A stretch of 64,000 nt of DNA. Origin: Alphaproteobacteria bacterium. Lineage in GTDB: Bacteria; Pseudomonadota; Alphaproteobacteria; Rickettsiales; UBA3002. Positions within the stretch are counted from its first letter, which is position 1, and each line of letters begins with the position of its first letter. This document shows, piece after piece, positions 5,361 to 51,060 of this stretch. Both the position numbers and the translations under genes were made by a program. Under the pieces are notes generated by a model that was not told the origin of the DNA, did no database searches, and saw only the letters and a list, made by a program, of their open reading frames with translations. Where the stretch lies: assembly GCA_037200745.1 (NCBI GenBank), contig JBBCHK010000010.1, forward strand, positions 3,101 to 67,100. Reading direction: 5' to 3'.

Positions 5361-5362
5361 GC

Positions 5363-9585: not shown

Positions 9586-10494
9586 TCAGTAATGGGTGAA
9601 ATTCCCTGCACGTGGTGGCAACGTGTCCGGTGTTCTAATATTGGAAGCCAGTCCCACACTTTCCAGCAACCTGACGAAATGATAGCCTATATCCAATTGG
9701 CCGGGATAAATACCGTGTCGCGCCGATGAAGGAAATGCATGATGATTATTATGCCAGCATTCGCCCATTGAAGGGAATTGCAGCCCAAGTAACGTTGCGG
9801 GCCTGTACGGCACCATCATCCACCAACCAATCTTGTGTACCGTGCGTATGGCACAAATAACCAACGAACCAATGCATATGCACGCCGACTGCCACACGAA
9901 CGATGACGCCCCAAACTACCCACGGCCATCCGCCAAGCGCATAGAAAATGATCGCGAGCGGCAATTGCTGCCAAGCCCAATAGCGTTGCAAAAATTGGTA
10001 AAATTTATCGTCTGCAATACCCTTGCCGGGGATCAAAGCCGGGCGGATGATCAAGCTTAAGCGTACAATGCAAATTCCACCAACCGTCTCTTACAATACC
10101 ACCGGCATGACGAAGATAGTCATGGCAGGTTGGGTGGCGCTGAGCCCAATCGCGAATATCGTGCGCGCGGATGACCCAAAATGGTCCATGCATGCCAACC
10201 AACACGCCAAAATACACAAGAATACGCTCTACCCATTTGGGGCACTCGAAGGTGCGATGAATCAAGCGCCGATGAAAAACCGACCGAGTGGCCCACACAC
10301 ATTGTGATTTCAAGTGAGATCAAAAAGAGAAGAAATGCACCCCATGTAAAAAACAGTGGGCCAAGAATTATGGCACCTAATAACATTCCACCATTCCAAA
10401 GAGAACGAAATGGATCCCATGAAACTGTTCCGGATACAGCGTCAACATCTGACGTGATGATGAGAGAATTAACTTTGTAAGCATCATCACTCAT
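9586..10494 (-). pseudogene. Acyl-CoA/acyl-lipid fatty acid desaturase, reading frame broken 3 times
   Basis: The His boxes are spread over four ORF pieces: GHSVGF|HRRLIHRTF, HMHWFVGYLCHTHG and WHNNHHAFPSSARHG. One break is an A5 run at 10275-10279 (T5 on the coding strand), where a run of 4 restores GFHRRLIH. Confidence 0.75.
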
Positions 10495-10625
10495 ACACTT
10501 TTAACTGGGCCAGCGAGTACTACTATTTCGTGGGATACAGTAGCAGCGGAAAACGACCAAGCGATTCTGTTCAGTCTGCATGATGACATTTCGCGCCAGA
10601 TAGCGTTGAAACCGAAAAAAGGAAA

Positions 10626-10950
10626 TTACTCATGCGATTTCCTCTTTTTGCCAGCGGCTAACTTTTTGCTTTCTTTTTTAAGAGGGCGACTCACTGGACA
10701 GAAATCGGCCAGAAAATCATACATATTGGTTATAAGATTCTCACGTACTAAACTATAATGGACATACTGCCCCCTTTTTCTCTGAAGTAATCAGCCCCGC
10801 ATTTGTCAGTACTTCCAAATGTTTTGAAATAGTTGGTTTTGCCATATCAAAACGCTTGGCAATTTCTCCCGCATTGAGGCTGGTTTTAGACAAGTAGGCC
10901 AAAATTTGTCTACGTGTAGACGACGACAAAGCTTGAAAAATCTTTTCCAT
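10626..10950 (-). pseudogene. ArsR/SmtB family transcriptional regulator, 1 frameshift
   Basis: MEKIFQALSSSTRRQILAYLS..AGEIAKRFDMAKPTISKHLEVLTNAGLITSEKKG. Removing 1 nt from the C5 run at 10770-10774 continues as QYVHYSLVRENL...KRKSHE to a stop at 10626-10628. Confidence 0.75.
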
Positions 10951-11187
10951 TTAGAAATCCATATAATTAGCTAATTTACTAATTATATACATACCTAACG
11001 ATAATTGCAAGAATCAAAATATTCCATTGTCATCCATATTGGGACCTGCATAATAGTCTGCGGGTTATGTCGAAAATCGTTAATTATCCCCCGCCACTTT
11101 CCCGGGAGCGACTTGATTTGGCTTTATAAGTTGCCATGCGCGTTATATAAGCCGGCGGAGCATGCTCATTCCAATCAGGGGGATACC

Positions 11188-20139: not shown

Positions 20140-21508
20140 ATGTGGGGCGGCCACTACGCGCGCGGGCCGGAGGAGGCCTTCGCCGCCATCAACCCGTCGA
20201 TCGACATCGACCGCCGCCTCTGGCGGGAAGACATCGCCGCCTCGCAGGCGCATGCGCGCATGCTGGGCAAATGCGGCATCCTGAGCGCGAGGGACGCGAA
20301 AGCCATCGCGCGCGGGCTGGACGAGATCGCCCGCGAGATCGAAGCGGGGAAATTCACCTTCACCGCCGCGCTCGAAGACATCCACATGAACATCGAAGCG
20401 CGGCTGAAGGAGAAGATCGGCGAGGCCGCCGGCCGCCTGCACACCGCGCGCTCGCGCAACGACCAGGTGGCGACCGATTTGCGGCTTTACGCGCGCGCTG
20501 CGTTGCAGCATTGCGATACCGCGCTGCAGCAATTGCAGGCAGCGCTGATCCACCAGGCGCAAAAAAAATACCGAGACCATCCTGCCGCGGCTGACGCACC
20601 TGCAGCCGGCGCAGCCGATCAGCTTCGCGCATCACCTGCTCGCCTATGTCGAGATGTTCGGCCGCGACCGCGCGCGCCTCGCCGATGCATCGCAGCGCCT
20701 CAACGAATCGCCGCTGGGCGCCGCCGCGCTCGCCGGCACCACTTACCCGATCGACCGCAGCATGACCGCGAGTGAGCTCGGCTTCGCGCGGCCGATGGCC
20801 AACTCGCTCGACGCGGTGGCCAGCCGCGATTACCTGCTCGAAATCCTCTCCGGCTTCTCCATCCTGGCGACGCACCTGTCGCGCCTCGCGGAGGAGCTGG
20901 TGCTATGGTCCTCGCCGCTGATCGGCTTCGTGCATTTGCCCGAAGGCTTCACCAGCGGCTCCTCGATCATGCCGCAGAAACGCAACCCCGACGCCGCCGA
21001 GCTCATCCGCGGCAAAACGGGCGGCATCACCGGCGCGCTCGTCGCCCTCACGACGATGCTCAAATCCCTGCCGCTCGCCTACAACAAGGACATGCAGGAG
21101 GACAAGCGCCACTTCTTCTTCGCGCTCGACGAGGTGCTGCTCTGCCTCCCCGCGATGGAAGGCATGATCGCCGGCATGACGGCCGACAAAAAACGCATGC
21201 GCGATGCCTGCACGCGCGGCTACCTCAACGCCACCGACCTCGCCGACTGGCTGGTGCAGCAACTCGGCATCGGCTTCCGCGACGCGCACGCGCTGACCGG
21301 CCGCCTCGTGCGCAAGGCCGAGGTAAAAGGCTGCATGCTGGAAGCGCTGAGCCTCGCCGAAATGCGCGAGATCCACCCGCGCATCACGAAGGACATATTC
21401 GCCGCGCTGAAGCCGGAGGCCTGCGTCGCGCGTCGGCTGAGCTTCGGCGGCACCGCGCCCTCACGCGTGCGCGAGGCCATCGCGGCGGCGAAGAAAGCCT
21501 ATTTGTGA
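20140..21508 (+). pseudogene. argH: Argininosuccinate lyase, 1 frameshift in an A8 run
   Basis: MWGGHYA...[17 protein letters not shown]...GSSIMPQKRNPD. The A8 run at 20561-20568 read as A7 gives [27 protein letters not shown]. Confidence 0.9.
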
Positions 21509-21747
21509 CACGCGCGGCGCTCATCCTGCTTGCTGCGCTGCTGGCCGCCAGCGCCTGCGGCGTGCAGCGCCCGCTGATCCAGCCGTCGCAGGTGCCGGAA
21601 TACGAGGCGCGCCGCGCCAAGCGGCTGCAGCAGATGCAGGACGACACCATCCCGCTGCCGCCGGATGTTTCCGTCGCGCCGCAGCGACCGCCGGTGACCA
21701 CCAACGTCGCGCCGGAGCCCGCCGCGCCGCAGGATACCGGCGACTAG
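21505..21747 (+). CDS. Small lipoprotein (LptM/YifL-like by position between argH and lysA)
   Basis: GTG start overlaps the argH stop (GTGA). Lipobox LLAASAC followed by a Pro-rich tail. Confidence 0.5.
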   Translation: MTRAALILLAALLAASACGVQRPLIQPSQVPEYEARRAKRLQQMQDDTIPLPPDVSVAPQRPPVTTNVAPEPAAPQDTGD

Positions 21748-21749
21748 CG

Positions 21750-23004
21750 ATGGATTTCTTCACGCATCGCAAAGGCGAGCTGATGGCGGAGGACGTCGCC
21801 ATCGCCGATATCGCGCGCCGAGTCGGCACGCCGTTCTACTGCTATTCGGCAGCGACGCTGAGCCGCCACGCGCGCATTTTCCGCGAGGCGGTGGGGATGG
21901 ATGCGCGCGTCTGCTTCGCCGTCAAGGCCAACGGCAACCTCGCCGTGCTGCGCCTGCTGGCGCACGCCGGGCTGGGCGCCGACGTCGTCTCCGAAGGCGA
22001 GATCCGCCGCGCGCTGGCCGCCGGCATCAAGCCGGAGCACATCGTTTTCTCCGGCGTCGGCAAATCGCGCGCGGAGATGGAGTTCGCGCTGGCGCAGGAT
22101 ATTTTTCCAGTTCAACGTCGAGTCGGAAGCGGAGCTTGACGCGCTGAATGCGCTTGCGCTCGCTGCGCACAAAAAAAGCGCCGGTCGCGCTGCGCATCAA
22201 TCCCGATGTCGACGCGAAGACGCACGCGAAAATCTCCACCGGCAAGAAGGAGAACAAGTTCGGCATCGCCATGAGGACCGCGCCCGCGCTGTTCCGCAAG
22301 GCGGCGCGCCTGCCGGGGATTTCGCTCAACGGCGTCTCGGTCCATATCGGCTCGCAGCTGACTTCGCTGGCGCCGTTCCACACCGCATACACGCGCGTGC
22401 GTGCGCTGGTCGACGCGCTGGCGAAAGAGGGCATTGCGCTCGCTACCATCGACCTCGGCGGCAGGGCTGGGTGTGCCTTACAGCGCGAAGGGCGCGCCGC
22501 CGCTGCCGAAGGAATACGGGAAAATGGTGCGCAGCATTTTCGGCGACCTCGACGTGCAGCTCGTCTTCGAGCCGGGCCGGCTGATCGCCGCCAATGCCGG
22601 CGTGCTGGTGACTCAGGTGCTCTCGGTCAAGCGCGCCGCGCGCACTTACGTCATCGTCGATGCGGGGATGAACGACCTGCTGCGCCCGCGCTGTACGATG
22701 CGAAGCATGAAGTGGTGGCGGTGAAGAGATCGCGCGCGCGCAATGCAACGTTCGACCTTGTCGGCCCTGTCTGCGAGTCGAGCGACGTCTTCGCCACCGG
22801 CCCTGAAGCTGCCGCTGCCGAAGGAAGGCGACCTGCTCGCCCTGCGCGGCGCCGGCGCCTACGGCGCGACGATGTCGAATACGTACAACGCGCGGCTGCC
22901 TGATTCCCGAAGTGCTGGTCGATGGCGGCCGTTTCGCCGTCATCCGCGCGCGGCCGGGCTACGACGATATGCTGGCGGCCGACACGATCCCGGATTGGCT
23001 CTAG
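21750..23004 (+). pseudogene. lysA: Diaminopimelate decarboxylase, at least 6 frame changes
   Basis: GTPFYCYS, CFAVKAN (PLP Lys), HIGSQL, DLGGGLGVPY, EPGR, CESSD and GAYGATMSNTYN motifs are distributed over ORFs in three frames. Confidence 0.85.
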
Positions 23005-24300: not shown

Positions 24301-24957
24301 ATGATCCGCTGCCAGAACCTCTCGCTCGAATACGTCCCCGGCAAACCGGTGCTGCGGCACATCAACCTGCATCTGGAGCCGGGCTCGTTCACCTTCCTCT
24401 CCGGCCATTCGGGGGCGGGGAAATCGTCGCTGCTGTCGCTGCTGTCGCTGTCGCAGAAGCCGACGGAAGGGACCATCCACCTCTTCGGGCAGGACGTCAC
24501 CGAGCTGTCGCGCGAGGAGCTGCCCGACGTGCGCCGCAAGATCGGCACCGTGTTCCAGGACTACCAGTTGCTGAACCACCTCACGGTGGCGCAGAATGTC
24601 GGGCTGCCGCTGAAGATCGTCGGCGAGAAGCCCACCGAGATCGCGCCCAAGGTGGAAGAATTGCTGGCATGGATCGGGCTCGGCGGCTTTGCCGACGTGC
24701 GGCCGCCCTTGCTCTCCGGCGGGCAGAAGCAGCGCGTCGCCATCGCCCGCGCGGTGATCAACACGCCGCTGCTCATCCTCGCCGACGAGCCGACCGGCAA
24801 CCTCGACCACGAGCTTTCGATGAAGCTGATGTACCTCTTCCGCTCGCTCAACAAGGTCGGCACGACGATCGTCTTCGCCACGCACGACGACTCGCTGATG
24901 GAAGCGTTCGACTACCCGGTGATCTACCTGCGCGACGGGCAGCTGCACCGAAGGTAG
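24301..24957 (+). CDS. ftsE: Cell division ATP-binding protein FtsE
   Basis: Walker [10 protein letters not shown], signature [14 protein letters not shown], Walker [13 protein letters not shown]. 218 aa. Confidence 0.9.
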
Positions 24958-25134
24958 TCTTGGTTTGCGCCTGTCGGCGCGTGGGGGCGAATTCAAGTTC
25001 GCTTCGCTCACTCGCCCCCAGCTGCCGGTTGACTCGCTATCGCTCGCCTCCCTCCGCTTCGCTCCGGGTCCCCTCCTTCGGCGGCCCTACGGCCGCCTGC
25101 GGGCTCGCCCTTACGGGCTACGCAGGCAGTGCGG
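24955..25134. repeat. Mosaic palindromic element, copy A (solo arm, type 2)
   Basis: Reverse-complement match to the right arm of copy D (CCCCCACGCGCCGACAGGCGC..., GGGGGCGAATTCAAGTTCGCTTCGC). Carries the conserved core CTACGCAGGCAGTGCGG at 25118-25134. Confidence 0.75.
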
Positions 25135-25830
25135 CTAGTTCGTCGCTTGCATCGTTGATGGTATCTTCCAGCCGCTTCAGCCAGCCGGCGACGTCTTCGC
25201 CGCAGGGCTCCAGCGGCGACAGGAAACGCAGCGTGGCGAGGCCGGGGGTTTTCCAGATGCTCGCCTTCGGCCAGAACCGTCCCGCATTGAGCGCGGCGGG
25301 GACGACCGGCGCGTTCAGCTCGGCGCTGATATAGCCGACGCCGGGGGTGGAACGGCCTGCGCTCGCCCGGCGGCAGGCGCGTGCCTTCGGGGAAAATGAC
25401 CAGCGTGCGGCCCAGCCCGTGATGCGCCGCCGCCTCCTCGGCGATGCGCTTGATGGTGCCGTTCTTCTTCGCGCGGTCGATGCCGATCTGCCCGCTGCGC
25501 CGGAGATACCAGCCGAAGACCGGGATGTGGTAAAGCTCGCGCCTTCAGGATGAACACCGGGTGGCCGAGGATGACCCAGAGCATCAGCGTGTCCCACGCC
25601 GACTGGTGCTTGCAGGCGACGATGCGCGCGCCTTTCAGGTGCTCCGAACCCTCGACGCGCGAATGCATGCCGGTGCTGCGCGCCAGCCAGAGGAGCGTGC
25701 CGCGCGCCCAGAAGCGGGCGACGTGCCACGTCGCGCGGCGGCTGAGCAATGCCGGCAGCGCGAGGAAGCCGACGGCGCCGGTGAAGGCGAACCAGCCGGC
25801 GAAGAAGACCAGCGTGCGCAGCTTGCTCAT
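25118..25830 (-). pseudogene. plsC: 1-acyl-sn-glycerol-3-phosphate acyltransferase (lysophospholipid acyltransferase), frameshifted
   Basis: ACKHQSAWDT (HX4D-type box), FPEGTR in another frame, and C-terminal YISAELNAPVVPAALNAG. The last codons and the stop lie inside repeat copy A. Confidence 0.75.
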
Positions 25831-28272: not shown

Positions 28273-28827
28273 CTAGGCGCTGGTGTCGACTTTCTTCTCC
28301 GCCGCGCCGCTGGCGACGCCGACCATCGCCGGGCGCAGCAGGCGGTCGTGGATGACGTAGCCGGCCTGCAGCACCTGCACCACCGTGCCGGGCTCGGCGT
28401 CCGCCCCCTCGATCTGGGCGACGGCCTGGTGGAAATTATGGTCGAACTTCTGGCCGAGCGGGTCGATGCGCTTGATGCCCTGCTTCTCGAAGGCGCCCAT
28501 CAGCTCCTTCATCGTCATCTCGACGCCCAGCGCGAGTTGGCGAGCGCCGGATCGTTCGCCTTCTGCTCGGGCGCGATGGCGGCGAGCGCGCGCTGCAGGT
28601 TCTCCAGCACACCGACGAGGTCGCGGGCGAAGCCGGTGACGGCGTATTTGCTCATGTCGGCGAGCTCGCGCTCGGCGCGGCGGCGGGTGTTCTCGATCTC
28701 GGCCAGCGAGCGCAGCGACTGGTCCTTCGCCGCGGCGAGCTCTTTATCTTTTTCGTCGAGCAGCGCCTGCAGGGCGCGCGCCATCGCCTCGGGGCCCGGG
28801 CTCCTCGCCTTCGGGCCCGTCGAACAT
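28273..28827 (-). pseudogene. grpE: Nucleotide exchange factor GrpE, 2 frameshifts
   Basis: [34 protein letters not shown] and ..GIKRIDPLGQKFDHNFHQAV..VVQVLQAGYVIHDRLLRPAMV. The breaks are at G4 28791-28794 and near 28535. Confidence 0.85.
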
Positions 28828-28860
28828 CTCGACTACGTTATCGTCCCGTCATCGCGGGCT

Positions 28861-28890
28861 ATATGTGCGCGTTTCCCATCAATTTTCAAG
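28861..28890 (-). promoter_or_regulatory. Candidate RpoH (sigma32)-type promoter for grpE
   Basis: On the minus strand, CTTGAAA (28890-28884), a 16-nt spacer, then CACATAT (28867-28861), about 35 nt upstream of the grpE ATG. Motif match only. Confidence 0.3.
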
Positions 28891-28943
28891 GGCCAGATGC
28901 TTGAAGCGGTTGCATGGGCCCCGTTTCCGGCTAGAACGCCGCC

Positions 28944-29663
28944 ATGACCCGTTCTTTCAAGCGCAGCCCTGCCGATTTGCGCCCGGTAACGCTGACGCCC
29001 GACGTCTCCCGCCACGCCGAAGGCTCCTGCCTCGTCGAGTTCGGCCACACCAAAGTGCTGTGCACGGCGAGCATCGAGGAAAGCATACCGCCCTACCTGC
29101 GCGGCAAGGGCCAGGGCTGGGTGACGGCGGAATACGGCATGCTGCCGCGTTCGACCAACACGCGCAACCCGCGCGAGGCGGCGAAAGGCAGCAGTCCGGC
29201 CGCACGCAGGAGATCCAGCGCCTCATCGGCCGAAGTTTGCGCACTTCGGTGGACCTTGCGAAGCTCGGCGAGCGGCAGATCGTCATCGACTGCGACGTGA
29301 TCGAGGCCGACGGCGGCACGCGCACCGCCTCGATCACCGGCGGCTTCGTCGCGCTGGCGCGGGGCGGTGCATTCGCTTAAAAGCCGCGGGCTGCTCAAGC
29401 TCGGCAACCCGCTGCTGATGCCGGTCGCCGCCGTTTCCTGCGGCATCGTCGATTCCCAGGCGCGCCTCGACCTCGACTATGAAGAAGACTCCGCCGCCGA
29501 GGTGGACGCCAACATCATCATGACCGCCGACGGCAATATCGTCGAGCTGCAGATGTCCGGGGAGGAGGCGACCTTCAGCGAGGCCCAGCTCGCCGAGCTG
29601 ATGGCGCTCGGCAGGAAAGGCATCGCCGAGCTCGCCGCCATGCAGCGCAAGGTGCTCGCATGA
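28944..29663 (+). pseudogene. rph: Ribonuclease PH, 2 frameshifts
   Basis: [78 protein letters not shown]. Confidence 0.85.
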
Positions 29664-30264
29664 GCGCCTTGAGCGAGATCGTCGTCGCCAGCCACAACGC
29701 CGGCAAGCTGCGCGAGATCGAGGCGCTTCTGGCGCCGCTGTCGATCCGCGTCACCTCCGCCGCCGCGCTCAACCTGCCCGAGCCGGAAGAGACCGGCGAT
29801 ACGTTCGAGGCCAACGCCCTGCTCAGGCCGAGACGGCGGCGTGCGCGGCTGCGGCCTGCCCTCGCTCGCCGACGATTCGGGCCTCGTCGTACCGGCCCTC
29901 GGCGGTTCGCCCCGGCATCTATTCCGCGCGCTGGGCCGGGCCGGAAAAAGATTTCTCCGCCGCGATGGCGCGCGTGAAGAACGAGCTGGGCGAGAACGCG
30001 CAAGGGGCACCGGCCTTCTTCGTCTGCGTGCTGGCGCTGGCGCAGCCGAGCGCGGCGCCGCTCGTCGTGCGCGGCGAAGTGCACGGCACGCTGACCTTCC
30101 CGCCGCGCGGCCACAAGGGCTTCGGCTACGACCCCATCTTCCTGCCGCAGGGCGCGACCGAGACCTTCGGCGAAATGTCGGTCGAGGCGAAGCACCGCGT
30201 CAGCCACCGCGCGATGGCCTTCGCGAAACTGCTGGAAGCATTGCAGGCGGAGCAGGCCGCATGA
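29660..30264 (+). pseudogene. rdgB: dITP/XTP pyrophosphatase (RdgB/HAM1), frameshifted
   Basis: [29 protein letters not shown], and FGYDPIF in separate frames. ATGA overlap with the rph stop. Confidence 0.8.
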
Positions 30265-32933: not shown

Positions 32934-33561
32934 ATGTTCCGTCGCATTTCTCGTTTTAGTAACATGTCTTTTCGCCGCTCCCCTCTACGCGGCGATGCCG
33001 CCGGTCGGCCAGCCGGCCCCCGATTTCACCGCGACCGATGCGCTCTCCGGCAAGCAGGTTTCGCTGCACGATTTTTCCGGCAAGCTGGTCGTGCTCGAAT
33101 GGAACAATTTCGACTGCCCGTTCGTGAAGAAATTCTATTCGACCAGCGAGATGCAGGAGCTGCAGAAGAACGCGCGCCATGAGGGCGTCGTCTGGATCAG
33201 CATCAATTCGAACGCGGTCGGCAAGGAAGGCTTCCTCGGCAGCGACGCGATCGCCAAGGCGGCGGTCACCCCTGCGCCACGCCCAGCCTTCGGCGTATAT
33301 CCGCGACGTCGCCGGCAGCATCGGCCACCCAGTACGGCGCGGGCTCGACGCCGACCATGGTCGTCATCGACAGGAACGGCGTGCTGGCGTACGAGGGCGC
33401 GATCGACAACAAGCCCTCCGCCGACCCGGCCGACATCGCCGGCGCCACGAACTACGTCACCGAAGCCCTGCGCGACCTGCAGGAAGGCAAGCCGTGAAGA
33501 TCAGCCACACGCAATCCTACGGCTGCTTACGCAATCCTACGGCTGCTTCGTGCATTATTAG
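32934..33561 (+). pseudogene. Secreted thioredoxin-fold (redoxin-like) protein, frameshifts plus a 20-bp tandem duplication
   Basis: RBS GGGGGAG. The signal peptide becomes in-frame after a T-run correction. GQPAPDFTATDALSGKQVSLHDFSGKLVVLEWNNFDCPFVKKFY. The C-terminus ..VKISHTQSYGC|FVHY is split by the duplication. Confidence 0.65.
33509..33548. repeat. Perfect 2 x 20-bp tandem duplication (ACGCAATCCTACGGCTGCTT)
   Basis: 33509-33528 is identical to 33529-33548. The unit length is not a multiple of 3, so it shifts the frame 13 codons before the stop. Confidence 0.9.
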
Positions 33562-33878
33562 TGGTGCGCGCGGTGCGCGCACGGGGGGCGATTAAAGCGC
33601 GCTGACGCGCGCCGCCCCCGCTACCGGTTGACTCGCTCACGCTCGTCTCCCTCCGCTTCGCTTCGGGTCCCCTCCTTCGCCGACCCTCCGGTCGGCTACG
33701 GGCTCGGCCTTCGGCCTACGCAGGCAGTGCGGAAGCTCAGGAGCGCGCGCGGCCACGCACGCCTCTGAGTTTCAGTTCATCCATGCGTAGCCGAATAGGC
33801 GAGCCGCGAGCGATAGCGAAGCGAGGGGGAGCGGTAGCGGGGGCACGTTGTGCCCCCCGTGCGCGTCAGCGCACCACC
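33559..33878. repeat. Mosaic palindromic element, copy B (full length, type 1)
   Basis: Starts TAGTGGTGCGCGCGGTGCGCGCACGGGGGGC and ends GCCCCCCGTGCGCGTCAGCGCACCACC. Core CTACGCAGGCAGTGCGG at 33716-33732. About 85-90% similar to copy C by eye, with indels. Confidence 0.8.
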
Positions 33879-34581
33879 AAACCCTCTCCGGCCCAGGCGG
33901 GCGTTGGTTCAGTGACCTTCTCGGCGATGGCGGCGTAGATTTGTTTCTCCGCCTCGACGACGAGGACACCGCCGAGCCAGGGGCAGACGAGCCCGCCCAG
34001 CCATTCGATGAAATCCCAGCCCCCGAGGACGTGGCGCGTCGGCGGTGCGAACAACATACTCGACGCCTCGCGCAGGGTGAATTTCGCCTCGTCAAGCAGC
34101 GTGCGCAGCTGGGCGAAGCTGTAGGGCGTGCCCTGGCCGAACGGCGTGCCGCTCCTCGCCCACGAGCCGCGACGATTGGGCACGATCAGCAGCAGCCTGC
34201 CGCCGGGAACGAGCAGCTCCCAGAAAATCTTCAGCAGCTCGTCGGGGCGTGGCTCGTATTCGAAGGCGTGCAGCATGACCACGCGGTGCAGCGCGTTGCG
34301 GGCGAAGGGCGGGCGCAGCGCGTCGGCCAGCACGGAGCGGTTGTCGCTGTGCACCGGCCAGTAGATGGCGCCTGCGACGCCGGCATCAGCGCGACGACGC
34401 CGGGCTTGCCGTCCGCCCGCCCGAGCACGCGCAGCAGCGGCGTCGCGTAGCCGATGCCGACGATGGCCTCGCCCGCATGCTGCGGCCAGGCGCGCATCAG
34501 GTGCGCGCGCAGGCGGCGCTTCACCCGGTGGCCGAGCCGCGAGGCGTAGAACTGGCGCAGGGCGATGATCTTGGGGCGCAT
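33866..34581 (-). pseudogene. Class I SAM-dependent methyltransferase (type 11-like), 1 frameshift
   Basis: MRPKIIALRQFYASRLG..IVGIGYATPLL (frame 1) joined to ..VVMLHAFEYEPRPDELLKIFWELLVPGGRLLLIVPNRRG. The last 5 codons and the TGA lie inside repeat copy B. Confidence 0.7.
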
Positions 34582-35329: not shown

Positions 35330-35756
35330 ATGCAGGCGACCCTGAATCCGCTCACGATGAGCAATGCACTTTCCCCTTCATCCAACTACTCGGCGAGCGA
35401 CATCGTGCAGACCGATTCGACGTTCGAGTCGCTCTTCGCCGACCAGAACGAGACGCCGCAGGAGATCCTCAAGGACCTGACCTCGAACGGCGTCAACGGC
35501 TACATGAAGTGGAAGATCGACCAGATGAAGGACAAAGCCACCGCGCAGGTGATGAACTCGATGGGCCTCACCAAGGCGCAGGTCGAGGGGATGCCGACCG
35601 ACCAGCGCATCGCGCTCGAGAAGAAGATCGAGTCGCAGGTGGAGCAGGAGGTAAAAATGTCCATCCAGCAGGAAATGAAGAAGAACGCCAATAGCGGCCC
35701 TCGCCGCCTTCGACCCGATGACCTCCGCCGCCATGCTGGGCGCCCAGGAAGTTTAG
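35330..35756 (+). pseudogene. Hypothetical protein (Gln/Lys/Met-rich), probable 1-nt frameshift near the 3' end
   Basis: RBS GGAGG at 35319-35323. MQATLNPLTMSNAL... Removing one C near 35700 gives ..SGLAAFDPMTSAAMLGAQEV, which stops at TAG 35754-35756 exactly at the edge of repeat copy C. Confidence 0.45.
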
Positions 35757-35760
35757 TCTT

Positions 35761-36055
35761 GGTGGTGCGCGCGTAGCGCGCACGGGGGGCGATTAAAAGC
35801 GCGCTTGACGCGCGCTCGCCCCCGCTACCGGTTGACTCGCTCACGCTCGTCTCCCTCCTTCGCCGACCCTCCGGTCGGCTACGGGCTACGCAGGCAGTGC
35901 GGAAATTCAGAAGTGCGCGCGGCCGCACGACTCAGAGTTTCAGTTCAGCCGTGCGTAGCGCCTTTAGCGGCGCGAGCCGCGAGCCGTCAGGCGAAGCGAG
36001 GGGGAGCGGTAGCGGGGGCACCACGTGCCCCCCGTGCGCGCTACGCGCGCACCAC
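35761..36055. repeat. Mosaic palindromic element, copy C (full length, type 1; perfect 29-bp terminal inverted repeats)
   Basis: 35762-35790 (GTGGTGCGCGCGTAGCGCGCACGGGGGGC) is the exact reverse complement of 36027-36055. Core at 35886-35902. Internal nested hairpins. Confidence 0.85.
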
Positions 36056-36510
36056 TAAAAGTTCCGGCCAGGGCCGGAACCGGAACCGGGCTGGTAGGCC
36101 GCCGGGCCGGAAGGCGGCATGGGGCTCGGCGCCATCAGGCCGGGGTTGATGCCCGGGGCGGGCTGCGGCGCATCGCCCGGCGCGGGCGGCGGCGATTGCT
36201 GGACGGATTGCGTGCGCACGGCCGGCGACGGTGACGGCGGATGCTGTTATCGGTGGTGGCGTGCCGGTGGTCTTCGGCTTGGCGACCGACCAGCCCTGTG
36301 GCCCATGCAATCGGAGAAGAGCGTCAGCAGCTCGGCGTTGCGGTCGCTCTGCGAGACCTGCGCGCCCGGCGGCAGCACCGTGTTGATGTTATGCTCGGCC
36401 TGGTCCTGGCAGTCGCCGTGGTCGCGGTCGTAGCGCGTCTGGATCTGGCTCTGGGCGAGGCAGCCCGCCAGCAGCAACGGCAACAGGAGGATGAGTTCCC
36501 TAGACGGCAT
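36055..36510 (-). pseudogene. Lipoprotein with Pro-rich tail downstream of fliJ, frameshifted
   Basis: Lipobox LLLAGC. After ~70 aa the sensible continuation (..KPKTTGTPPP.. then ..QSPPPAPGDAPQPAPGINPGLMAPSPMPPSGPAAYQPGSGSGPGRNF) requires 2 frame changes. The stop lies at the edge of repeat copy C. Confidence 0.45.
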
Positions 36511-36919: not shown

Positions 36920-38258
36920 TTCTTGCCTTCGCTCATGCCGAGCACCCTGGCGAGCTGCTCGTATCCTTCGGCGAGGCTTGCCGATTCCTTCTCGGGCTGG
37001 GTGATGAAGGCTTCGAGCTGCGGGTAATATGCATCGCGCGGTCGACGTCGGGGTCGGTGCCGCGGCGATAGGCGCCGAGGCGGATCAACTCCGCCATGTT
37101 CTCGTAGGTCGCGAGGTGGCGCCGCGCGGCGATGAGCAGCGTGTTCTCGTACTCGCTGTCGCAGTCGGGCAGCATGCGCGAGACGGACTTCAGGATGTTG
37201 ATCGCCGGTAGCGCCCGCGCTGCGCGATCTCGCGGTCCAAAACGATATGCCCGTCGATGATGCCGCGCACACGCGTCGGCGATGGGCTCGTTGTGTCGTC
37301 GCCCTCGACGAGCACCGGAGAACAGCCCGTGATCGCGCCGGAGCCGACCACGCCCGGCCCGGCGCGCTCCAGCAGCCGGGGCAGCTCGGAGAATACGGTG
37401 GGCGTGTAGCCCTTGGTCGTCGGCGGCTCGCCGGCGGAAAGCCCGATCTCGCGCTGGGCCATGGCGAAGCGCGTCACCGAATCCATCAGCAGCAGCACCT
37501 GCTTACGCTGGTCGCGGAAATATTCGGCGACGGCCATCATCGTGTAGGCCGCCTGCCGGCGCATCAGCGCCGATTCGGAGGAGGTGGCGACGACGACGAC
37601 GGAGCGCTTCAGCCCCTCCTCGCCGAGATCGTCCTCGATGAATTCCTGCACCTCGCGCCCGCGCTCGCCGATCAGGCCGATGACGTTGACGTCCGCCTGC
37701 GAATAGCGCGCCAGCATCGACATCAGGATGGATTTGCCGACGCCGGAGCCGGAGAAGATCCCCATCCGCTGCCCCGGCAGCAGGTGAGGAAAGTGTTGAT
37801 GGCGCGCACGCCGAGATCGAGCTTCCCCGCAACGCGGGCGCGCGACGCGGCGGCCGGCGGGCTGGCGCGCAGCAGGTACGGAATGCCGCCTTTAGGCAGC
37901 GGCCCCTTGCCGTCGATGGGATTGCCATCGCGTCGACGATACGGCCGAGCCATGCGTCCGACGGCTCGACGGCGGAGGCGGAAGCCAGCACCGTGACCTT
38001 CGCCCCCAGCCCGACGCCCTCGACCGAGGCGAAGGGCATCAGCAGCGCGATGCCCTCGCGGCCGACGACCCTCGCACAATATTTCATGGTCCGCGCCGTG
38101 GCTGCCCTGCACCTTGCAGCGCGCGCCCACCGACAGCGCCTGCTCGATCCCGGTCGCCTCGATCAGCAGCCCCTTGAACCGCGACGACCCCGCCCGCTCA
38201 GCTCATAGGTCGGCAGGCGGTCGAGTTCGGCAAGCAGGTGCTGGCGCAGGGTGGACAT
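36916..38258 (-). pseudogene. fliI: Flagellum-specific ATP synthase FliI, at least 6 frame changes
   Basis: MSTLRQHLLAELDRLPTYE.., Walker [48 protein letters not shown], and C-terminus ..YPQLEAFITQ are spread over three frames. Confidence 0.8.
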
Positions 38259-39749: not shown

Positions 39750-41207
39750 GCGACCTCCCGCAGGCGGGCGACGTCGATCACTTCCGCCTCGATGCCGTCG
39801 AGATCCAGCCTGTGCCCCTTCACCGGCGCCTCGACGACGTCGACCACCTGCTCGACGGCGATGCCGATGCGCTGGCCCTCAACCCCGGTGAGCACCACCA
39901 GCTCGGCGATGTTCGGCCGCTCGGTGCCCGGCAGCGTGGCGATGCGCATGTGCTCACGCGGCGCGCCGATGGCGTCGATGCGGCTGACGTCCTCAAGCCG
40001 CAGCGCCTTGAGCGCGCCACCGCCGGCGCGGAAAAGCAGGAAGCTCGCTGGCTTTAGCAGCGCTTCGCCGACGGCCGGCTTCGGCGCGGCGACCGGCGGC
40101 AGGTCGGCGACGTCGCGGAAGCCGATGCTGCGCGCGATGCCGGCAGGATCGAGCACGAGCAGCGGCGTCGCGCCGCCCAGCTGCACGCAGCCGCGATAGA
40201 GCGGCAGCCGCGAAAGCAGCGCAGGCAGCTTGCGCTGCACCGCTTCCTCCGGCTCGCCGAGCGTGGCGAAGCTGAGCGCGAATTCCGCCTCGCCGACCTT
40301 GACGATGGCGATGCTGTCCTCGCGCGCCGCCTCGACCTTCAGCAGTTCGGCGAGCGACACCAGCGGCACGACGCGCTCGCCGGCGAGCAGCACGCGCACG
40401 TTGAAGACCGTCTCGATGCGCCAGTTGCCGAGCGCGTGGCGATCGAGCAGCTCGAGCACGTAGCGCTCGGGCAATGCGAGCTTCGCCGCGCCGGTTTCGA
40501 CCGGCAGCAGCGCGACGACTTCGAGCCCCGGCGCCTGCGGCCCCTGCGAGCCGCGCAGCGCGTCGGCGAGCGTGCGCGTCAGGGCGCCGAGCTTCTGGAT
40601 GGGCGCGGCGAGCGTTTCGTCGCCTTTGGCTTTCAGTTGCTGGCGCAGGGCGATGAGCTCGCCCACCGCCCAGGCGAGTTTTTCCAGCAGGGCGCGGCGC
40701 GAGATCGTCGGGCTCGGCGTTTCGAGCCCGTGGCGGATGGCCTCGCGCTGTGCCTGCGCCGAGATCGGTGCGGGCGGCCTTGCCGGTTTCGCCGGCAGCA
40801 GCGCCGCGTTCGGCAGCGCCAGCGGCGCGATGGCGGGGGCGGGCTCGGCAAGCTGCGGCTGCGGCGCGCGCTTGAGGTGGGCGAGCAGCGCCGTGTCGTC
40901 GCCCTGCGGCTCCTCGCCGTGCGCGGCGAGGTGCTGGATGAGGTGCTTGATCTGCGCCAGCGCCTCGATCAGCGCGAAGCTGCCCTCGCCGCCGCGCGAC
41001 AGCGCTTCCTCCGCCGCCTGGGCGATGGCTTCGAGCCGCTTCAGCCCGAGGAAGTCCCGACGTGCCCTTGATGGTGTGGACGAGGCGCGAGATGGTGGCG
41101 AGGATCTGCGTATCGCCGGGATTCTGCTCGAGGCGCACGAGCTCGGCATCGAGCAGCGCGAGCGATTCGCCCGTCTCCTCCAGGAACTCGCCGATGAGAT
41201 CGTCCAT
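39746..41207 (-). pseudogene. CheA-like protein with Hpt (P1) domain and two CheW-like (P5) domains but no HATPase_c kinase domain; 1 frameshift after the Hpt motif
   Basis: MDDLIGEFLEETGESLALLDAELVRLE..ISRLVHTIKGTSG|FLGLKRLEAIAQ (phospho-His motif HTIKG). A ~100-aa Pro/Ala linker follows, then two CheW-like modules. No N/G1/G2 ATPase boxes in any frame. Confidence 0.7.
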
Positions 41208-41303: not shown

Positions 41304-41605
41304 TAGTGGTGGCTGTGCCACGGGGGTCGAAGACGCCCCCGCTACCGGTTGACTCGCTATCGCTCGTCTCCCTCCGCTTCGCTCCGGGTCCCCTCGTTCG
41401 CTTCGCTCCGGCTCGCCTATTCGGCTACGCACGGATGAATTGGAACTCAGAATATTCTCAGCGCTTCCGCACTGCCTGCGTAGCCCGTCAGGGCGAGCCC
41501 GGAGGCGGCCGGAGGCCGCCGAAGGAGGGGGAGCGGAGCGGGGGCGAGTTCGCGAAGCGAACTTGAATTCGCCCCCACGCGCCGACAGGCGCCAATCAAA
41601 AACTA
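41304..41605. repeat. Mosaic palindromic element, copy D (full length; type-1-like left end, type-2 right arm)
   Basis: TAGTGGTGGCTGTGCCACGGGGG...CCCCCGCTACCGGTTGACTCGCT... Inverted core CCGCACTGCCTGCGTAG at 41467-41483. The right arm is the reverse complement of copy A. The chpT stop sits at its last 3 nt. Confidence 0.8.
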
Positions 41606-42268
41606 GCTCGCCGCCGCGACGGCGAGCTGGTGCTGTGTCGCGACGATCTCAAAGAGGTCACTGTGTGCCTCCACGGCGAGCGTCGCGCCGACTTCTTCGG
41701 CGATCTTGCGGGTCAGGAACGGCTGGGCGCTTTTCGGCGACAGCATGGAATCGTCGCCCTGGCCCTTGAGGATGAGCGCGGTCTCCGGGTCGAGCTTGAT
41801 GGTCTCGCCCTTGCCGCTCAGCGTGACGATCTTGTCGCCCGCCGCATTGGTGCCGATGCGTACCGAGATGGTGCCGCCACGGATCATCGCCGCCGCGGCG
41901 ATGACGAACATGTTGAGGATCAGCCGCGCCGTTTTCTGGCTGATCGAGATGCCGGCGGCGTCGGTATGGGTGTCGGGCCAGTCGAGCTTGACCTTGCTGC
42001 CCTCGAAGAAATTGATGGCGAGCTGTTTCTTGTCGGCCAGGCAGGCCTCGCCGGAATCCGACACGCGGCCGTAGGCCTGGCGGTAGAACTGCAGGCGGTT
42101 GACCGCCTCGTGGGCGCTGGAGAGGATGAGCTGCACGGCCTCGTGCTGCATGTCGAAGCCTTCGTCGCCCAGGAACTCGGCGCCGTTATTGACCGCGCCG
42201 ATCGGGCCCGTCAAATCGTGGCACAGGCGCGTGCACAGCATTTCCGCAAGTCTGGTCTCGGATACCAT
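41603..42268 (-). CDS. chpT: Histidine phosphotransferase ChpT
   Basis: LAEMLCTRLCHDLTGPIGAVNNGAEFL (phospho-His in the CHDL context) plus a degenerate HATPase-like C-terminal half. 221 aa. Confidence 0.85.
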   Translation of the reverse strand: MVSETRLAEMLCTRLCHDLTGPIGAVNNGAEFLGDEGFDMQHEAVQLILSSAHEAVNRLQFYRQAYGRVSDSGEACLADKKQLAINFFEGSKVKLDWPDTHTDAAGISISQKTARLILNMFVIAAAAMIRGGTISVRIGTNAAGDKIVTLSGKGETIKLDPETALILKGQGDDSMLSPKSAQPFLTRKIAEEVGATLAVEAHSDLFEIVATQHQLAVAAAS

Positions 42269-43622: not shown

Positions 43623-43639
43623 CGCCTTATGATAAAGTG

Positions 43640-43745
43640 AAGCGCTTCGCGCTTGGGGGGCACTAACGTGCCCCCGCTACCGCTCCCCCTCGCTTCGCTA
43701 CGCTCGCGGCTCACCTATCCGGCTACGCAAGACAGTGCGGCCAGC
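43640..43745. repeat. Mosaic palindromic element, copy E (solo arm, beta-type)
   Basis: GGGGGGCACTAACGTGCCCCCGCTACCGCTCCCCCTCGCTTCGCT...GGCTACGCAAGACAGTGCGG matches the reverse complement of the right arm of copy B. Confidence 0.6.
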
Positions 43746-44999
43746 TCAGCATTTAGTAAAACACGCCGCGAAGAAACCGTCCATGCCGCCATCGCCGGCA
43801 CGCATGTCGAGGCGGGTGCGCAGCATGCCATCCGCAATGCATTCCGCCGGGAGCCCCTGCGCGGGAACGAGCCGCGCGTCCTTGTGCGTGTCGAGGAACC
43901 ATTGCGCCTGCGCTTCGCCTTCCTCCGGCTCGAGCGAGCAGACGCAATAGACCATGCGCCCGCCCGACTTCAGCCAATCCCACGCGCGCGAAAGCATTTT
44001 GCGCTGGAGCGCGGCAAGCTCGGCGATGTCGCGCTCGCCGGTCAGCGCCAACACTTCCGGGTGGCGGCGCCATGTGCCCGTCGCGCTGCAGGGCGCGTCG
44101 AGCAGGATGGCGTCATAGGGCGTCGCGGGCTGCCATTCCAGTATGTCCGCCGTGATGCATTCGGCGGAAAGCTTCATGCGCGCGAGATTCCCGGCGAGCA
44201 GGCGCATGCGGCCCGGGCCACGGTCGAGCGCGGTGACGAGCGCACCGTCGCGCGCGAGCTGCATGGTCTTGCCGCCGGGTGCTGCGGCGAGGTCGAGCAC
44301 GCGCCGGCCGCGCACATCGCCGAGCAATCGCACGGGGTAGCTCGCCGCGATGTCCTGCACGAAGAATGCGCCCTCGGCGAAGCCGGGCAGCGCGGCGACC
44401 GATTCATGCTCCGGCGGCAGGCGCCATATCTGTCCGTCGAGCCGCGCGCCGGACGGCATCGTCGCCGGTTGCGGCAGGTTGAGGTCGAGCGGCGGGCGTT
44501 GCGCGGCGGCTTCGGCGACGGCGGCGGCGATCGCGGCGCCGTAACGCTGCTCCCAGCGCGCACGGAAATGCCCGGGGATATTGTGCAGCGCTTCCGGCAG
44601 CGCCGGCTTTTCGCGTGCGGCGCGCTGCAGCACGGCGTTGAGAAGCCCGGCGAGGCCGGCGTCCTTGCCGCCCTTGATCGCCTCGACGGTTTCGTTCACC
44701 GCCGCGTGCGCCGGCGTGTCGAGCAGCAATAGCTGTGCGAGGCCGATGCGCAGCGCTTGCGTGACGCGCGTCCGTTTCACCGGAAGCGGCTTGTCGAGAT
44801 AGCGCGCGATGAGCGCATCGAGCTGGCCGAGGTGACGCAGCACGGCGAGCGCGAGCAGCATGGCGAAGCGCGCATCCGCGGAATCGCCGGCGAGCGGCAG
44901 GCTTGCGGCAGCCTCGTCGAGCGTGCGTTGCTGCGTCAGCACGGCGTCGAGCAACGCGATGGCTTCGCGGCGGACGGCGGATGGGGCGATGCGGCTCAT
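43746..44999 (-). CDS. rsmB: 16S rRNA (cytosine-C5)-methyltransferase RsmB/Sun family
   Basis: NusB-like N-terminal domain, VLDLAAAPGGKT SAM motif, DAILLDAPCSATGTWRRHPE and YCVCSLEPEEGE catalytic Cys motifs. Start chosen at ATG 44999 (MSRIAPSAV). Confidence 0.85.
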   Translation of the reverse strand: MSRIAPSAVRREAIALLDAVLTQQRTLDEAAASLPLAGDSADARFAMLLALAVLRHLGQLDALIARYLDKPLPVKRTRVTQALRIGLAQLLLLDTPAHAAVNETVEAIKGGKDAGLAGLLNAVLQRAAREKPALPEALHNIPGHFRARWEQRYGAAIAAAVAEAAAQRPPLDLNLPQPATMPSGARLDGQIWRLPPEHESVAALPGFAEGAFFVQDIAASYPVRLLGDVRGRRVLDLAAAPGGKTMQLARDGALVTALDRGPGRMRLLAGNLARMKLSAECITADILEWQPATPYDAILLDAPCSATGTWRRHPEVLALTGERDIAELAALQRKMLSRAWDWLKSGGRMVYCVCSLEPEEGEAQAQWFLDTHKDARLVPAQGLPAECIADGMLRTRLDMRAGDGGMDGFFAACFTKC

Positions 45000-49036: not shown

Positions 49037-49783
49037 ATGGCAGGCCATTCCACGCAAAGAACGTCGCCCGGCGCAAGGGCGCGCAGGACGCGAAAAAAGC
49101 GAAGATCCTCACCAAGGTCGCGCGCGAGATCATCGTCGCCGCCAAGTCCGGGCCGGACCCGAACTTCAACGCCAAGCTGCGCGCGGTGCTCATCAAGGCG
49201 CGCCAGTCCGGCATGCCGAAGGAACGGGCGGACGCCGCCATCGCCAAGGGCTCGGGCACCGGCAGCATGGAGAATTTCGAGAGCGTGCGCTACGAGGGCT
49301 ACGGGCCGGGCGGCGTCGCCGTCATTATCGAGGCGCTGACCGACAACCGCAACCGCACCGCCGCCGAGATCCGAAGCATCTTCACCAAGAGCGGCGGCAA
49401 CCTCGGCGAGACGGGCTCGGTCGGTTTCATGTTCGAGCGCGTCGGGCTGATCGACTATCCCCGCCGAGCGCATCATCGAGGACGCGATGCTCGAAGCCGC
49501 CATCGACGCCGGCGCCGAGAACTGCGAAACGGCGGACGGCGTGCATACCGTCACCACGAGCATGGAGTCGTTCAACGCCGTGCGCGACACGCTGGCGCAG
49601 AAATTCGGCGACGCCACCGAGGGCAAGATCGCCTGGCTGCCGAAGGTCGCGGCGAATGTCGGCGGCGAGCAGGCCGAAGCGCTGATGGACCTCATCGACG
49701 CGCTGGAAGATAACGACGACGTGCAGGACGTCTTCACCAACGCCGAGTTCGACGCGGCGACATTGCAGAAGCTGAGTGCATAA
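49037..49783 (+). pseudogene. yebC: YebC/PmpR family transcriptional regulator, 2 frameshifts
   Basis: MAGHS|[62 protein letters not shown]..|..[19 protein letters not shown]. The first break is a C-run undercall at ~49050. Confidence 0.85.
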
Positions 49784-49785: not shown

Positions 49786-51060
49786 ATGACCTTAAAAGCT
49801 ACAGAAGTTTTTGTTCCGGGTGCTTACCCAGAACATACGTACGTTGAGAGAGCAGAACAAAAATTAGAAGAAACCCTCAAGAATGCTTTAGATACTCCCG
49901 GACAGATAATTTCTCTTTCCGGTCCATCTAAATCAGGGAAAACTGTCTTAGTAGAAAAAGTTGTCGGACAAGAGCAGCTTATTGCTATTTCTGGCGCATC
50001 GTTAAAACGTCCTGAGGACGTATGGCAACATGTCCTCGATTGGATGGATCTGCCTACCAGCGTGTCGTCCAGCACTACAATCGACGGGAATATAAAAGGA
50101 ACTGCTTCTGCCTCAGTGGGGGCAGGAATTCTTGGCTTTGTAAAAGGAACCGGAAGTCTTTCGGCAACTGCAGAAGCTGGCGGTTCAGTAAAAACCGAAC
50201 AGACTCAAGAACGGGGCGGTTTATTACAAGTCCAACGTGAAATAGCTAATAGCCCCTTCGTCGTCCTAATAGATGACTTCCATTACATGGACCGCACGCT
50301 TCAAGTTGAAGTGGCAAAAATACTAAAGGAAGGGGTGCGCCTTAATATAAAAATAGTAACAGCTTCTGTTTCTCACCGGAACGATGATGTCGTAAGAGCC
50401 AATCCAGAATTAAGGGGGCGTGTTAAGACCATTGATTTAAAATATTGGAGTAAACAAGAGTTAGAGGCCATCGCTAAAGCCGGGTTTGGTATTTTAAATA
50501 TAGGCATTGCTCAAGAGGTAATTAATCAATTTGTTATTGAATCCGCTGGCTCTCCTCAGTTAATGCAACTTTTATGCCTACAAGCCTGCTTTGCTTTAAG
50601 CGCTAACCAAAAAAGCTTGCCATTTAAAGATATTGAAATCAGCTCGGATAAATTGAAGCAGATTTTGGAACAAGCCAGTACGAATACCAATTATCGCTCG
50701 CTAATAGATGTCTTGGACAGCGGCCCTCGCTTAAGAGGAACTGAGCGCAAAACATATAACTGTTATGACAATACATCTGGCGACGTTTACAGGGTCGTTC
50801 TTAAAGCAGTTGCCATGAACCCCCCGCGACTTTCATTTCCATATGAAGAACTTTTGCGTAGAACTGCAAAAATATGTGTTGGTGAGTCGCCAGTGGGGTC
50901 AAGTGTAACTAGCACGTGCTTGCATATGTCCAAGCTAGCCCAAGAGAAGTTCCCTGCCGAAAGGGCTATTGACTGGGACGAGCAAAAGCAGGTGTTTGAT
51001 ATTCCGGATCCGTATCTTTTATTTTATTTAAGGTGGTCCGGCCGCCTATTAGAAGAGTAG
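49786..51060 (+). CDS. Orphan P-loop NTPase (AAA+/ORC-Cdc6/Arch_ATPase-like) with an unrecognised C-terminal domain; low-GC foreign gene
   Basis: Walker A LSGPSKSGKT and Walker B FVVLIDDFHY. A Gly/Ser/Ala-rich insert lies between them. 424 aa intact ORF at about 45% G+C (hand count) versus a GC-rich flank. ATG is 2 nt after the yebC stop. Confidence 0.8.
   Translation: MTLKATEVFVPGAYPEHTYVERAEQKLEETLKNALDTPGQIISLSGPSKSGKTVLVEKVVGQEQLIAISGASLKRPEDVWQHVLDWMDLPTSVSSSTTIDGNIKGTASASVGAGILGFVKGTGSLSATAEAGGSVKTEQTQERGGLLQVQREIANSPFVVLIDDFHYMDRTLQVEVAKILKEGVRLNIKIVTASVSHRNDDVVRANPELRGRVKTIDLKYWSKQELEAIAKAGFGILNIGIAQEVINQFVIESAGSPQLMQLLCLQACFALSANQKSLPFKDIEISSDKLKQILEQASTNTNYRSLIDVLDSGPRLRGTERKTYNCYDNTSGDVYRVVLKAVAMNPPRLSFPYEELLRRTAKICVGESPVGSSVTSTCLHMSKLAQEKFPAERAIDWDEQKQVFDIPDPYLLFYLRWSGRLLEE

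Follow-up and report, generated by a model that had tools for sequence, protein, structure and literature searches.

The 64-kb stretch of DNA analysed here (64,000 nt, hereafter the window) carries six dispersed copies, A to F, of a non-coding palindromic repeat, all of which lie at the ends of genes: behind an ftsE-like ABC ATPase gene (A), between ahpC and a convergent methyltransferase-like gene (B), between the convergent p192 and PNPOx genes (C) and in the chpT-cheA (D), rsmB-rpe (E) and ftsH-glmM (F) spacers. The window corresponds to positions 99723-163722 of JBBCBH010007065.1 (194,518 bp; GCA_037975565.1), a contig from a PacBio HiFi co-assembly of beech deadwood metagenomes (PMC11613949), and was read together with 10 kb of downstream and 8.7 kb of upstream sequence, i.e., over 82.6 kb. 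Its G+C content is ~66% and its gene content (ChpT, DUF1192, TrcR, Tol-Pal) is alphaproteobacterial; the closest FtsH among 5.8 billion proteins is just 81-83% identical, the sources being metagenome-assembled genomes labelled "Alphaproteobacteria bacterium". Comparisons were made with syntenic relatives represented by five loci (~95 kb in total, 56% G+C), two of which (L060 and L061) cover sites B, C, D and E and three (L057-L059) site F.

All six loci were found where the original prediction had placed them and consist of nine homologous arms, B, C and D being ~300-nt pairs of arms joined head to head and A, E and F being solo arms. Copy A (24955-25135, + strand) is a solo type-1 arm in which TAG, the long terminus TCTTGG, hairpin 1 (GCGCC-TGTC-GGCGC), the G-run, hairpin 2 and the C-run are followed by C/T-rich modules, two small hairpins and the core. 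In the full element B (33559-33880) a central linker (33733-33783) separates a left arm of type 1 (33559-33732, +) from a right arm of type 2 (33784-33880, -), and the same succession is seen in the full element C (35754-36058), with a type-1 left arm at 35754-35902 (+), a linker at 35903-35949 and a type-2 right arm at 35950-36058 (-). Copy D (41304-41605) is full and chimeric, its left arm (41304-41431, +), type 1 on the outside and type-2-like at the inner end, being joined through a centre (41432-41466) to an A-type right arm (41467-41605, -). Copy E (43635-43749, +) is a solo type-2 arm, and copy F (63969-64000, +) is a solo type-1 arm which, as its truncation by the window had led one to expect, continues in the contig for 84 nt more (L044 11942-12057), reaching a total of ~115 nt and ending in the core.

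Alignment of the nine arms from the outer end to the core indicates that the repeat unit is the 100-180-nt arm and not the 300-nt element. Read from the outside in, an arm begins with TAG, in three cases (A, C-left and D-right) extended by a TCTTGG-like hexamer, followed by TGGTG, hairpin 1, GGGGGGC, a hairpin 2 nested in a G-run/C-run stem, GCCCCCGCTACCG and optional C/T-rich modules rich in CCCTCC; the inner end is made of one or two small hairpins and GGCTACGCA, after which comes either GGCAGTGCGG or the linker. Conservation is seen in GGGGGGC, in GCCCCCGCTACCG and in the inner core of 17 nt, the last containing a small imperfect palindrome, CGCA-GGCAG-TGCG, beside CTAC. Two types of arm recombining between copies had been proposed, and a single modular plan with two variants is indeed what the alignment reveals: type 1 (A, B-left, C-left, D-left, F and D-right), marked by GCCCCCGCTACCGGTTGACTCGCT, and type 2 (B-right, C-right and E), marked by GGGGGCAC-n3/4-GTGCCCCCGCTACCGCTCCCCCTCGCTTCGC, do not have the same hairpin 2 or the same middle modules, and copy D mixes parts of both. 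In a full element the two arms are placed head to head round a CTACGCA...TGCGTAG stem. The terminal inverted repeats of copy C (35759-35790 on the + strand and 36027-36058 on the - strand) are complementary at 97% over 32 nt, and the perfect 29-nt repeat recognised previously within them (35762-35790 against 36027-36055) holds at 29/29 positions; those of copy B extend over 29-31 nt at 93%, whereas the two arms of D have different hairpin-1 subtypes, so that their ends are alike in plan only. The elements have a G+C content of 66-70%, equal to or above the 66% of the genome, and their forward strand is rich in CCCTCC, with 8.2 occurrences per kb of arm vs 0.22 per kb of background and none on the reverse strand. 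Four arms (A, B-left, C-left and D-left) have a GACTC (a GANTC site), always in the same position, and no GANTC is present in the other five (F, D-right, B-right, C-right and E). There is a weak bias in orientation, the + strand carrying all three solo arms as well as the type-1 arms of B and C. The solo arms are most simply understood as remnants of, or half-products from, arm pairs.

That these sequences constitute one family follows from their mutual similarity, identity among copies being 71-94%. By BLAST, B and C are 79% identical over 330 nt (E = 2e-77) and A matches the left arm of B at 84% over 153 nt; furthermore, the right arm of D is, as claimed, the reverse complement of A (71% over 175 nt) and E that of the right arm of B (93% over 83 nt). 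The shared core was also located as described: CTACGCAGGCAGTGCGG, which forms the inner end of the arm, occurs at 25118-25134, 33716-33732 and 35886-35902 on the + strand and at 41467-41483 on the - strand, and a variant with one indel, CTACGCAAGACAGTGCGG, is found in copy E at 43723-43740. Four exact matches in the window compare with 0.02 expected, and none of 100 shuffled sequences reached this number. A census of the 82.6 kb with a profile HMM and a covariance model returned exactly nine arms at six loci and nothing further; the arms add up to 1,222 nt and make up 1.65% of 74 kb of scanned sequence.

Folding of both strands, which had been recommended as a check, yields a long hairpin on each. 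The + strand RNA of copy C folds as one hairpin of -207.8 kcal/mol (z = -10.9) and its - strand RNA as one of -203.5 kcal/mol (z = -11.1), while as DNA the z-score is -9.5; B and D give similar hairpins, the minimum free energy of B being -208 kcal/mol on either strand, and in the full elements the two strands are symmetric with respect to both folding energy and number of G-U pairs. The solo arms are little more stable than their shuffled counterparts (z = -0.1 to -3.2 forward and -0.3 to -4.1 reverse), their structure being concentrated in hairpins 1 and 2 and their C/T-rich tracts being largely unpaired.

The small outer hairpins keep their stems through compensatory changes. Hairpin 1 has a perfect 5-8-bp stem in 9/9 arms, a result with a chance probability of p = 0.0002-0.02 per arm against shuffles, and yet six different stem sequences are used for it (GCGCC, GTGCGCGC, GTGGC, GCGCGC, GTGCGC and AAGCGC). 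In the case of hairpin 2, GA..TC is replaced by AC..GT in the outer stem, and GTTCGC/GCGAAC takes the place of GCGCGC in the inner one. When the nine outer modules were aligned with Infernal and compared with 500 shuffles, 86.3% of the cells were found to be paired vs 79.1 +/- 1.8% (0/500), both sides had changed in 9 of 21 pairs (1/500) and the covariation score was 0.188 vs 0.099 (0/500), whereas only 35-65% of the cells pair when the partners are slid by 1-3 columns. These figures are to be read bearing in mind that the alignment was fitted to the structure, that the nine arms are related and that template-directed repair can keep perfect DNA palindromes without selection. In repeats of this kind it is the shape of the hairpin that persists, not its sequence.

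The relationship between the elements and the neighbouring genes is precise: at five of the eight outer termini the TAG or TAA of the arm coincides with the native stop of the gene next to it. The TAG at 24955-24957 (copy A) terminates the ftsE-like ABC ATPase gene; that at 33559-33561 (B-left) is the stop of ahpC in its native frame, whose end ...TQSYGCFVHY* matches ...TRSYGCSVKY* of L060; that at 36055-36057 on the - strand (C-right) ends the p192 orthologue (...GRNF*); that read as the reverse complement of 41603-41605 (D-right) is the stop of chpT, ChpT having 221 aa in the window as well as in L060 and L061; finally, the TAA at 63969-63971 (F) is the native stop of ftsH, the same codon ending ftsH in four genomes. 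In addition, the inner end of copy E abuts, at a distance of 6 nt, the rsmB stop (43746-43748), which is itself at its native position. On the other side of copy B the convergent methyltransferase-like open reading frame (ORF) ends with a TGA (33866-33868) located inside the loop of hairpin 1.

When the boundaries are placed by eye, copies A, C and D have TA on both sides (TA[G...C]TA) and copy B has TA and CA (TA[G...C]CA), TA representing 1.5% of the dinucleotides; the left TA belongs to a pre-existing stop codon in five cases, and removal of the element together with one TA would leave plausible junctions, namely AGG-TAG for ftsE and TAA for chpT, ahpC and both convergent genes at C. The five orthologous spacers of the relatives are short and devoid of elements: the rsmB-rpe spacer (E) measures 123 nt in the window vs 38 and 59 nt; the chpT-cheA spacer (D) 453 nt as called, or 395 nt to the true cheA ATG at 41207, vs 89 and 138 nt; the spacer of the convergent pair at B 368 nt vs a 35-nt overlap of the two genes in L060; the p192/PNPOx spacer (C) >300 nt vs 9 nt in a relative; and the ftsH-glmM spacer (F) about 216 nt vs 50 nt in L059.

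Some irregularities of the flanking genes may be recorded here. The last 15 codons of ahpC are broken just upstream of copy B (33510-33549), where 20 nt (CGCAATCCTACGGCTGCTT-A/C) stand twice in tandem and 1 nt has been lost, the native C-terminus being still readable in another frame. Between the PNPOx gene and copy C lies a 148-aa ORF (35330-35776, +), coiled-coil-like and matching no Pfam family, which is missing from L060, the PNPOx and p192 genes being direct convergent neighbours there; its called stop falls within the loop of hairpin 1 of copy C and an alternative frame ends with ...MLGAQEV* at the TAG 35754-35756. The best intrinsic-terminator-like site in 19 kb scanned is at the end of chpT (41605-41628, -), where a G+C-rich hairpin of 10 bp, made by the last codons, precedes the stop codon and the T-run that opens the right arm of D.

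As to coding capacity, its absence, like that of a transposase in the window, had been part of the original prediction and is borne out: no reading frame is kept across the copies, no gene is called within any of them and the stop-free frame of copies A-D has no match among the 5.8 billion proteins, nor are there spurious ORFs covering other copies. Pfam and NCBIfam analyses of the low-GC islands and of all larger unannotated ORFs gave no transposase. The 424-aa ORF at 49786-51060, considered as a nearby transposase, was rejected, being merely a weak AAA-type ATPase.

Relatives of the family were likewise sought without success. In Rfam the sole match at the gathering threshold is tRNA-Ser, and no element has a match at E <= 1. 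The 17-nt core has 43 single matches in 185,579 species-representative genomes, approximately the number expected by chance, scattered over unrelated phyla and in no case extending past the seed; a 19-nt core has 10 loci in JGI metagenomes, none extending past ~24 nt; core and arm module find only chance matches in IMG/VR; copy C has no blastn match in PLSDB (72,556 plasmids, rhizobial replicons included); and the ~95 kb of the relatives contain no homologue by nhmmer, blastn or covariance model. The statement that the element is not a recognisable named family thus survives these searches, which suggest a previously undescribed sequence family, apparently confined to this lineage.

Taken together, these data make it probable, though by no means certain, that the repeats are lineage-specific, non-coding, G+C-rich palindromic mosaics behaving as a non-autonomous mobile element, similar to a miniature inverted-repeat transposable element (MITE) or to the doublets of repetitive extragenic palindromic (REP) sequences known as REPINs; the dispersed nested-palindrome family described at the outset as resembling MITEs or REP/BIMEs (bacterial interspersed mosaic elements) is, in any case, real. 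Were the copies mobile, the mechanism might be the following. A transposase encoded elsewhere in the genome would have moved them in trans, inserting them at TA dinucleotides that in most cases belonged to a TAA or TAG stop codon in a very short 3' spacer, and duplicating the TA. The ends of the element being 5'-G...C-3', TA plus G would read TAG inward at each side; both flanking genes would keep a stop codon because of this property of the ends, and with TAG regenerated on both sides the insertion would therefore be nearly neutral. A first guess for the enzyme would be a TA-duplicating DDE transposase of the IS630/Tc1-mariner or IS5/IS427 type, the alternative being an HUH enzyme or a REP-associated tyrosine transposase (RAYT). 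Once in place, the strong GC hairpins would lie in the 3' untranslated regions (3'-UTRs) of the upstream genes. REP/BIME elements affect the 3' ends of mRNAs, and by analogy with these and with Correia elements the hairpins of the arms would probably constitute barriers to 3' exonucleases or terminator-like structures.

Several observations weigh against this reading. The scan of called genes and of ORFs >=150 aa over the 82.6 kb found no transposase, integrase or Y1/RAYT domain, and no copy was seen outside this contig in the genome, metagenome, viral, plasmid and relative searches. The identity between copies (71-94%) gives no sign of recent movement; the sequence of the outermost hairpin varies, which is unusual for a transposase-binding inverted repeat; with regard to the supposed 3'-UTR role, the hairpins lack U-tracts, except for one at chpT; and at 66-70% G+C and ~300 nt the elements depart from the classical bacterial MITEs, which are A+T-rich and <200 nt long (PMC2229807). 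As regards the insertion itself, TA is palindromic, so that a 2-nt duplication is indistinguishable from a TA belonging to the inverted repeat; the longer terminus TAGT(C/T)TT(G/T)G leaves more than one possible boundary in A, C-left and D-right; and the relatives are too distant (56% vs 66% G+C) for a base-by-base alignment of the empty sites.

With TA on both sides, copies A, C and D are more in keeping with a duplication than with the alternative in which single-stranded DNA hairpin arms of REP/BIME or REPIN type were moved by a RAYT or another IS200/IS605-like HUH tyrosine transposase encoded elsewhere, with insertion 3' of a T(T)AG-like target and without duplication. In this alternative, the main rival, which we nevertheless regard as unlikely, full copies would be inverted doublets and solo arms decaying singlets, and the presence of both forms would be accounted for, as would the extragenic location and G+C-richness of all copies, the T(T)AG ahead of most termini, the + strand bias of the solo arms and of the type-1 arms of B and C (p about 0.06), expected from single-strand transposition, and the small palindrome next to CTAC in the core. 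Against it, GTAG/CTAC is found on the side of the palindrome opposite to that of the E. coli REP consensus, and conservation resides in the G/C runs and in the inner core rather than in a short terminal palindrome. The integration host factor (IHF)-binding motif found between the palindromes of the BIME-1/RIB class, searched for as WATCARNNNNTTR, is not present in any element. Preservation of hairpin shape with varying sequence is also a property of REPIN spacers (PMC3337134); on the other hand, REPINs are about three times smaller (89 nt) and typically flank their RAYT gene (PMC3337134), and neither a RAYT nor any other Y1 transposase is encoded in the 82.6 kb.

A selective role at the RNA level would offer another way of looking at the compensatory changes in hairpins 1 and 2: the arms would be structured modules selected by the host, either 3'-UTR cassettes acting as stabilisers or terminators or 3'-UTR-derived small RNAs, spread by recombination, and their single-stranded CCCUCC tracts, resembling an anti-Shine-Dalgarno sequence, would act on mRNAs or on ribosomes. 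The restriction of CCCTCC to the forward strand, the largely unpaired state of the C/T-rich tracts in the solo arms and the fact that in 7/9 arms the upstream gene transcribes this strand, from its own stop codon onwards, are in keeping with such a role; the arms are homologous, however, and the enrichment does not represent independent events. Furthermore, both strands fold equally well without G-U asymmetry, whole solo arms barely exceed shuffles (forward z = -0.1 to -3.2), copy E is read in the opposite orientation and no Rfam family is matched. The modules are also absent from all five orthologous sites and from the 95 kb of the relatives, even when searched for with the covariance model, and therefore no conserved function is attached to these genes. 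Altogether this explanation appears quite improbable. As for the possibility that the copies were created by the assembly, or that G+C-rich intergenic sequences merely resemble one another by chance, the contig does come from a metagenome co-assembly and frameshifts are numerous in the surrounding genes, but the copies are non-identical, each sits in a unique syntenic gene context on one HiFi contig, E-values go down to 2e-77, no shuffle reproduces the core count and nine arms share an ordered modular plan, so that the doubt raised originally in this respect is dispelled and an artefact can hardly be credited.

To return to the non-autonomous mobile element, a bolder version of it, to which we would give little weight, envisages a "stop-codon-docking" element with a second life as RNA, in the form of a 3'-UTR stabilising module or of anti-Shine-Dalgarno regulatory RNAs, expanding in a genome with signs of gene decay. 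If this were true, docking on stop codons would allow the element to colonise harmlessly the zero-length or overlapping spacers of convergent genes, and the covarying hairpins together with the single-stranded CCCUCC tracts would provide each upstream mRNA with a 3'-UTR module.

Among known systems, bacterial MITEs are characterised by terminal inverted repeats, 5'-TA-3' termini, target duplication and long stem-loops (PMC2229807). The present family shares with them the non-coding nature, the terminal inverted repeats, the long stem-loop produced by pairing of the 5' and 3' ends and the dispersed copies, and differs in not being A+T-rich and in its size (~300 nt vs the usual 100-200 nt); its TA termini and target duplication are suggestive. 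A close comparison is with the TA-ended MITEs Correia/NEMIS of Neisseria, RUP of S. pneumoniae and ERIC/IRU of enterobacteria, which likewise are non-coding, have inverted repeats of about 25-30 nt, fold as whole-element stem-loops and lie mostly in intergenic positions near gene ends, where they are co-transcribed with the upstream gene; their 5'-TA-3' ends and probable TA duplication may have a counterpart here, and they are moved by a transposase in trans, IS630-Spn1 having been proposed for RUP (PMC2229807). Unlike these, our elements bear no sequence similarity to them, have modular arms that also occur alone and a variable outermost hairpin, and lack an IHF site. With the REP/BIME and REPIN-RAYT systems of E. 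coli, Pseudomonas and Stenotrophomonas (PMC3337134, PMC3116915) they have in common the extragenic G+C-rich palindromes, the inverted doublets forming one hairpin (B, C and D) beside singlets (A, E and F), an interior that keeps structure and not sequence, the mosaic of units and linkers and the lineage-specificity of the sequence. Their units, however, are of 100-180 nt and not 20-40 nt, there is no conserved terminal REP, the terminal hairpin having six stem sequences, no RAYT is found in the 82.6 kb and the TA flanks point to a duplication, whereas none arises from HUH transposition.

Within the alphaproteobacteria, the rhizobial intergenic mosaic elements RIME1 and RIME2 (Osteras et al. 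1995, as cited in PMC2573895) and the Sm-repeats are, according to the brief account in PMC2573895, intergenic mosaics with large palindromes and conserved secondary structure, present in dozens of copies and of unknown function, and the present family resembles them in the first three respects. The comparison with RIME is by description and by indirect searches, in which the core does not appear as a repeated motif in the 185,579 genomes nor copy C in PLSDB. The CcrM (GANTC)-associated intergenic repeats (CIR) of Caulobacter and Brucella (Chen and Shapiro 2003), insofar as they are described in PMC2229807, are also alphaproteobacterial intergenic repeats with TA termini, and the fixed GACTC of four arms recalls them; nevertheless GANTC is missing from 5/9 arms and, where present, lies outside the loops, so that an exposed site is not found in every copy, and whereas the 5' and 3' halves of CIR are reported there to fold independently, here the two ends pair.

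The kind of element is thus well known, and no new class or new mechanism is opened by it. What the family does is to explain six puzzling long spacers and several mis-called gene ends, the ORFs in question running into hairpin loops, and to supply an annotation item for a poorly sampled alphaproteobacterial lineage as well as a strain-typing marker. It also offers a clean example of a small repeat placed on stop codons, the native stop being reused even at a site where a relative has the two genes overlapping. Of greatest interest, in the end, are this precise docking and the covariation of the small hairpins.

The ftsH-glmM spacer deserves a separate remark. Where the window has copy F and L059 a plain stretch of 50 nt, two other relatives have a palindromic repeat of another kind, rich in GANTC (GAGTCGTGAGTC... 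and the inverse of this; L057 11945-12056 and L058 11957-12036), of which the ~95 kb of the relatives contain no second copy. This spacer seems to be a recurrent landing place of lineage-specific palindromes. Over the window as a whole the site of CcrM methylation, GANTC, is far rarer than expected, with 129 occurrences vs 277 +/- 16 in dinucleotide-preserving shuffles.

Many housekeeping genes of the window are in pieces (20654-22724, 28273-30264, 33213-33561, 34372, 36922-38258, 41052-41207 and 49051-49783). GrpE is called as 81+89 aa, RNase PH as 118+98 aa and Ham1 as 105+99 aa, and the genes for argininosuccinate lyase and Orn/DAP decarboxylase are similarly split; compared with L060, fliI has at least four frame changes and cheA, yebC, the methyltransferase-like gene and ahpC at least one each. 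The L060 orthologues of the broken genes are intact and the shift points are away from long homopolymers; to judge from the sequence, genuine decay of the genes would seem a better description than HiFi error.

Two regions of low G+C content complete the picture. An insert of ~44% G+C (49786-51060), whose 424-aa ORF has only weak AAA/NTPase matches, separates yebC from ruvC, two genes that are adjacent in the relatives. A larger island (5000-11000, 42-54% G+C) lies directly downstream of tRNA-Ser(TGA) (5271-5360) and contains two short-chain dehydrogenases and regulators of the HxlR and TetR types, followed by 2.4 kb without a called gene; no integrase is seen there, and the region looks like a tRNA-associated genomic island.

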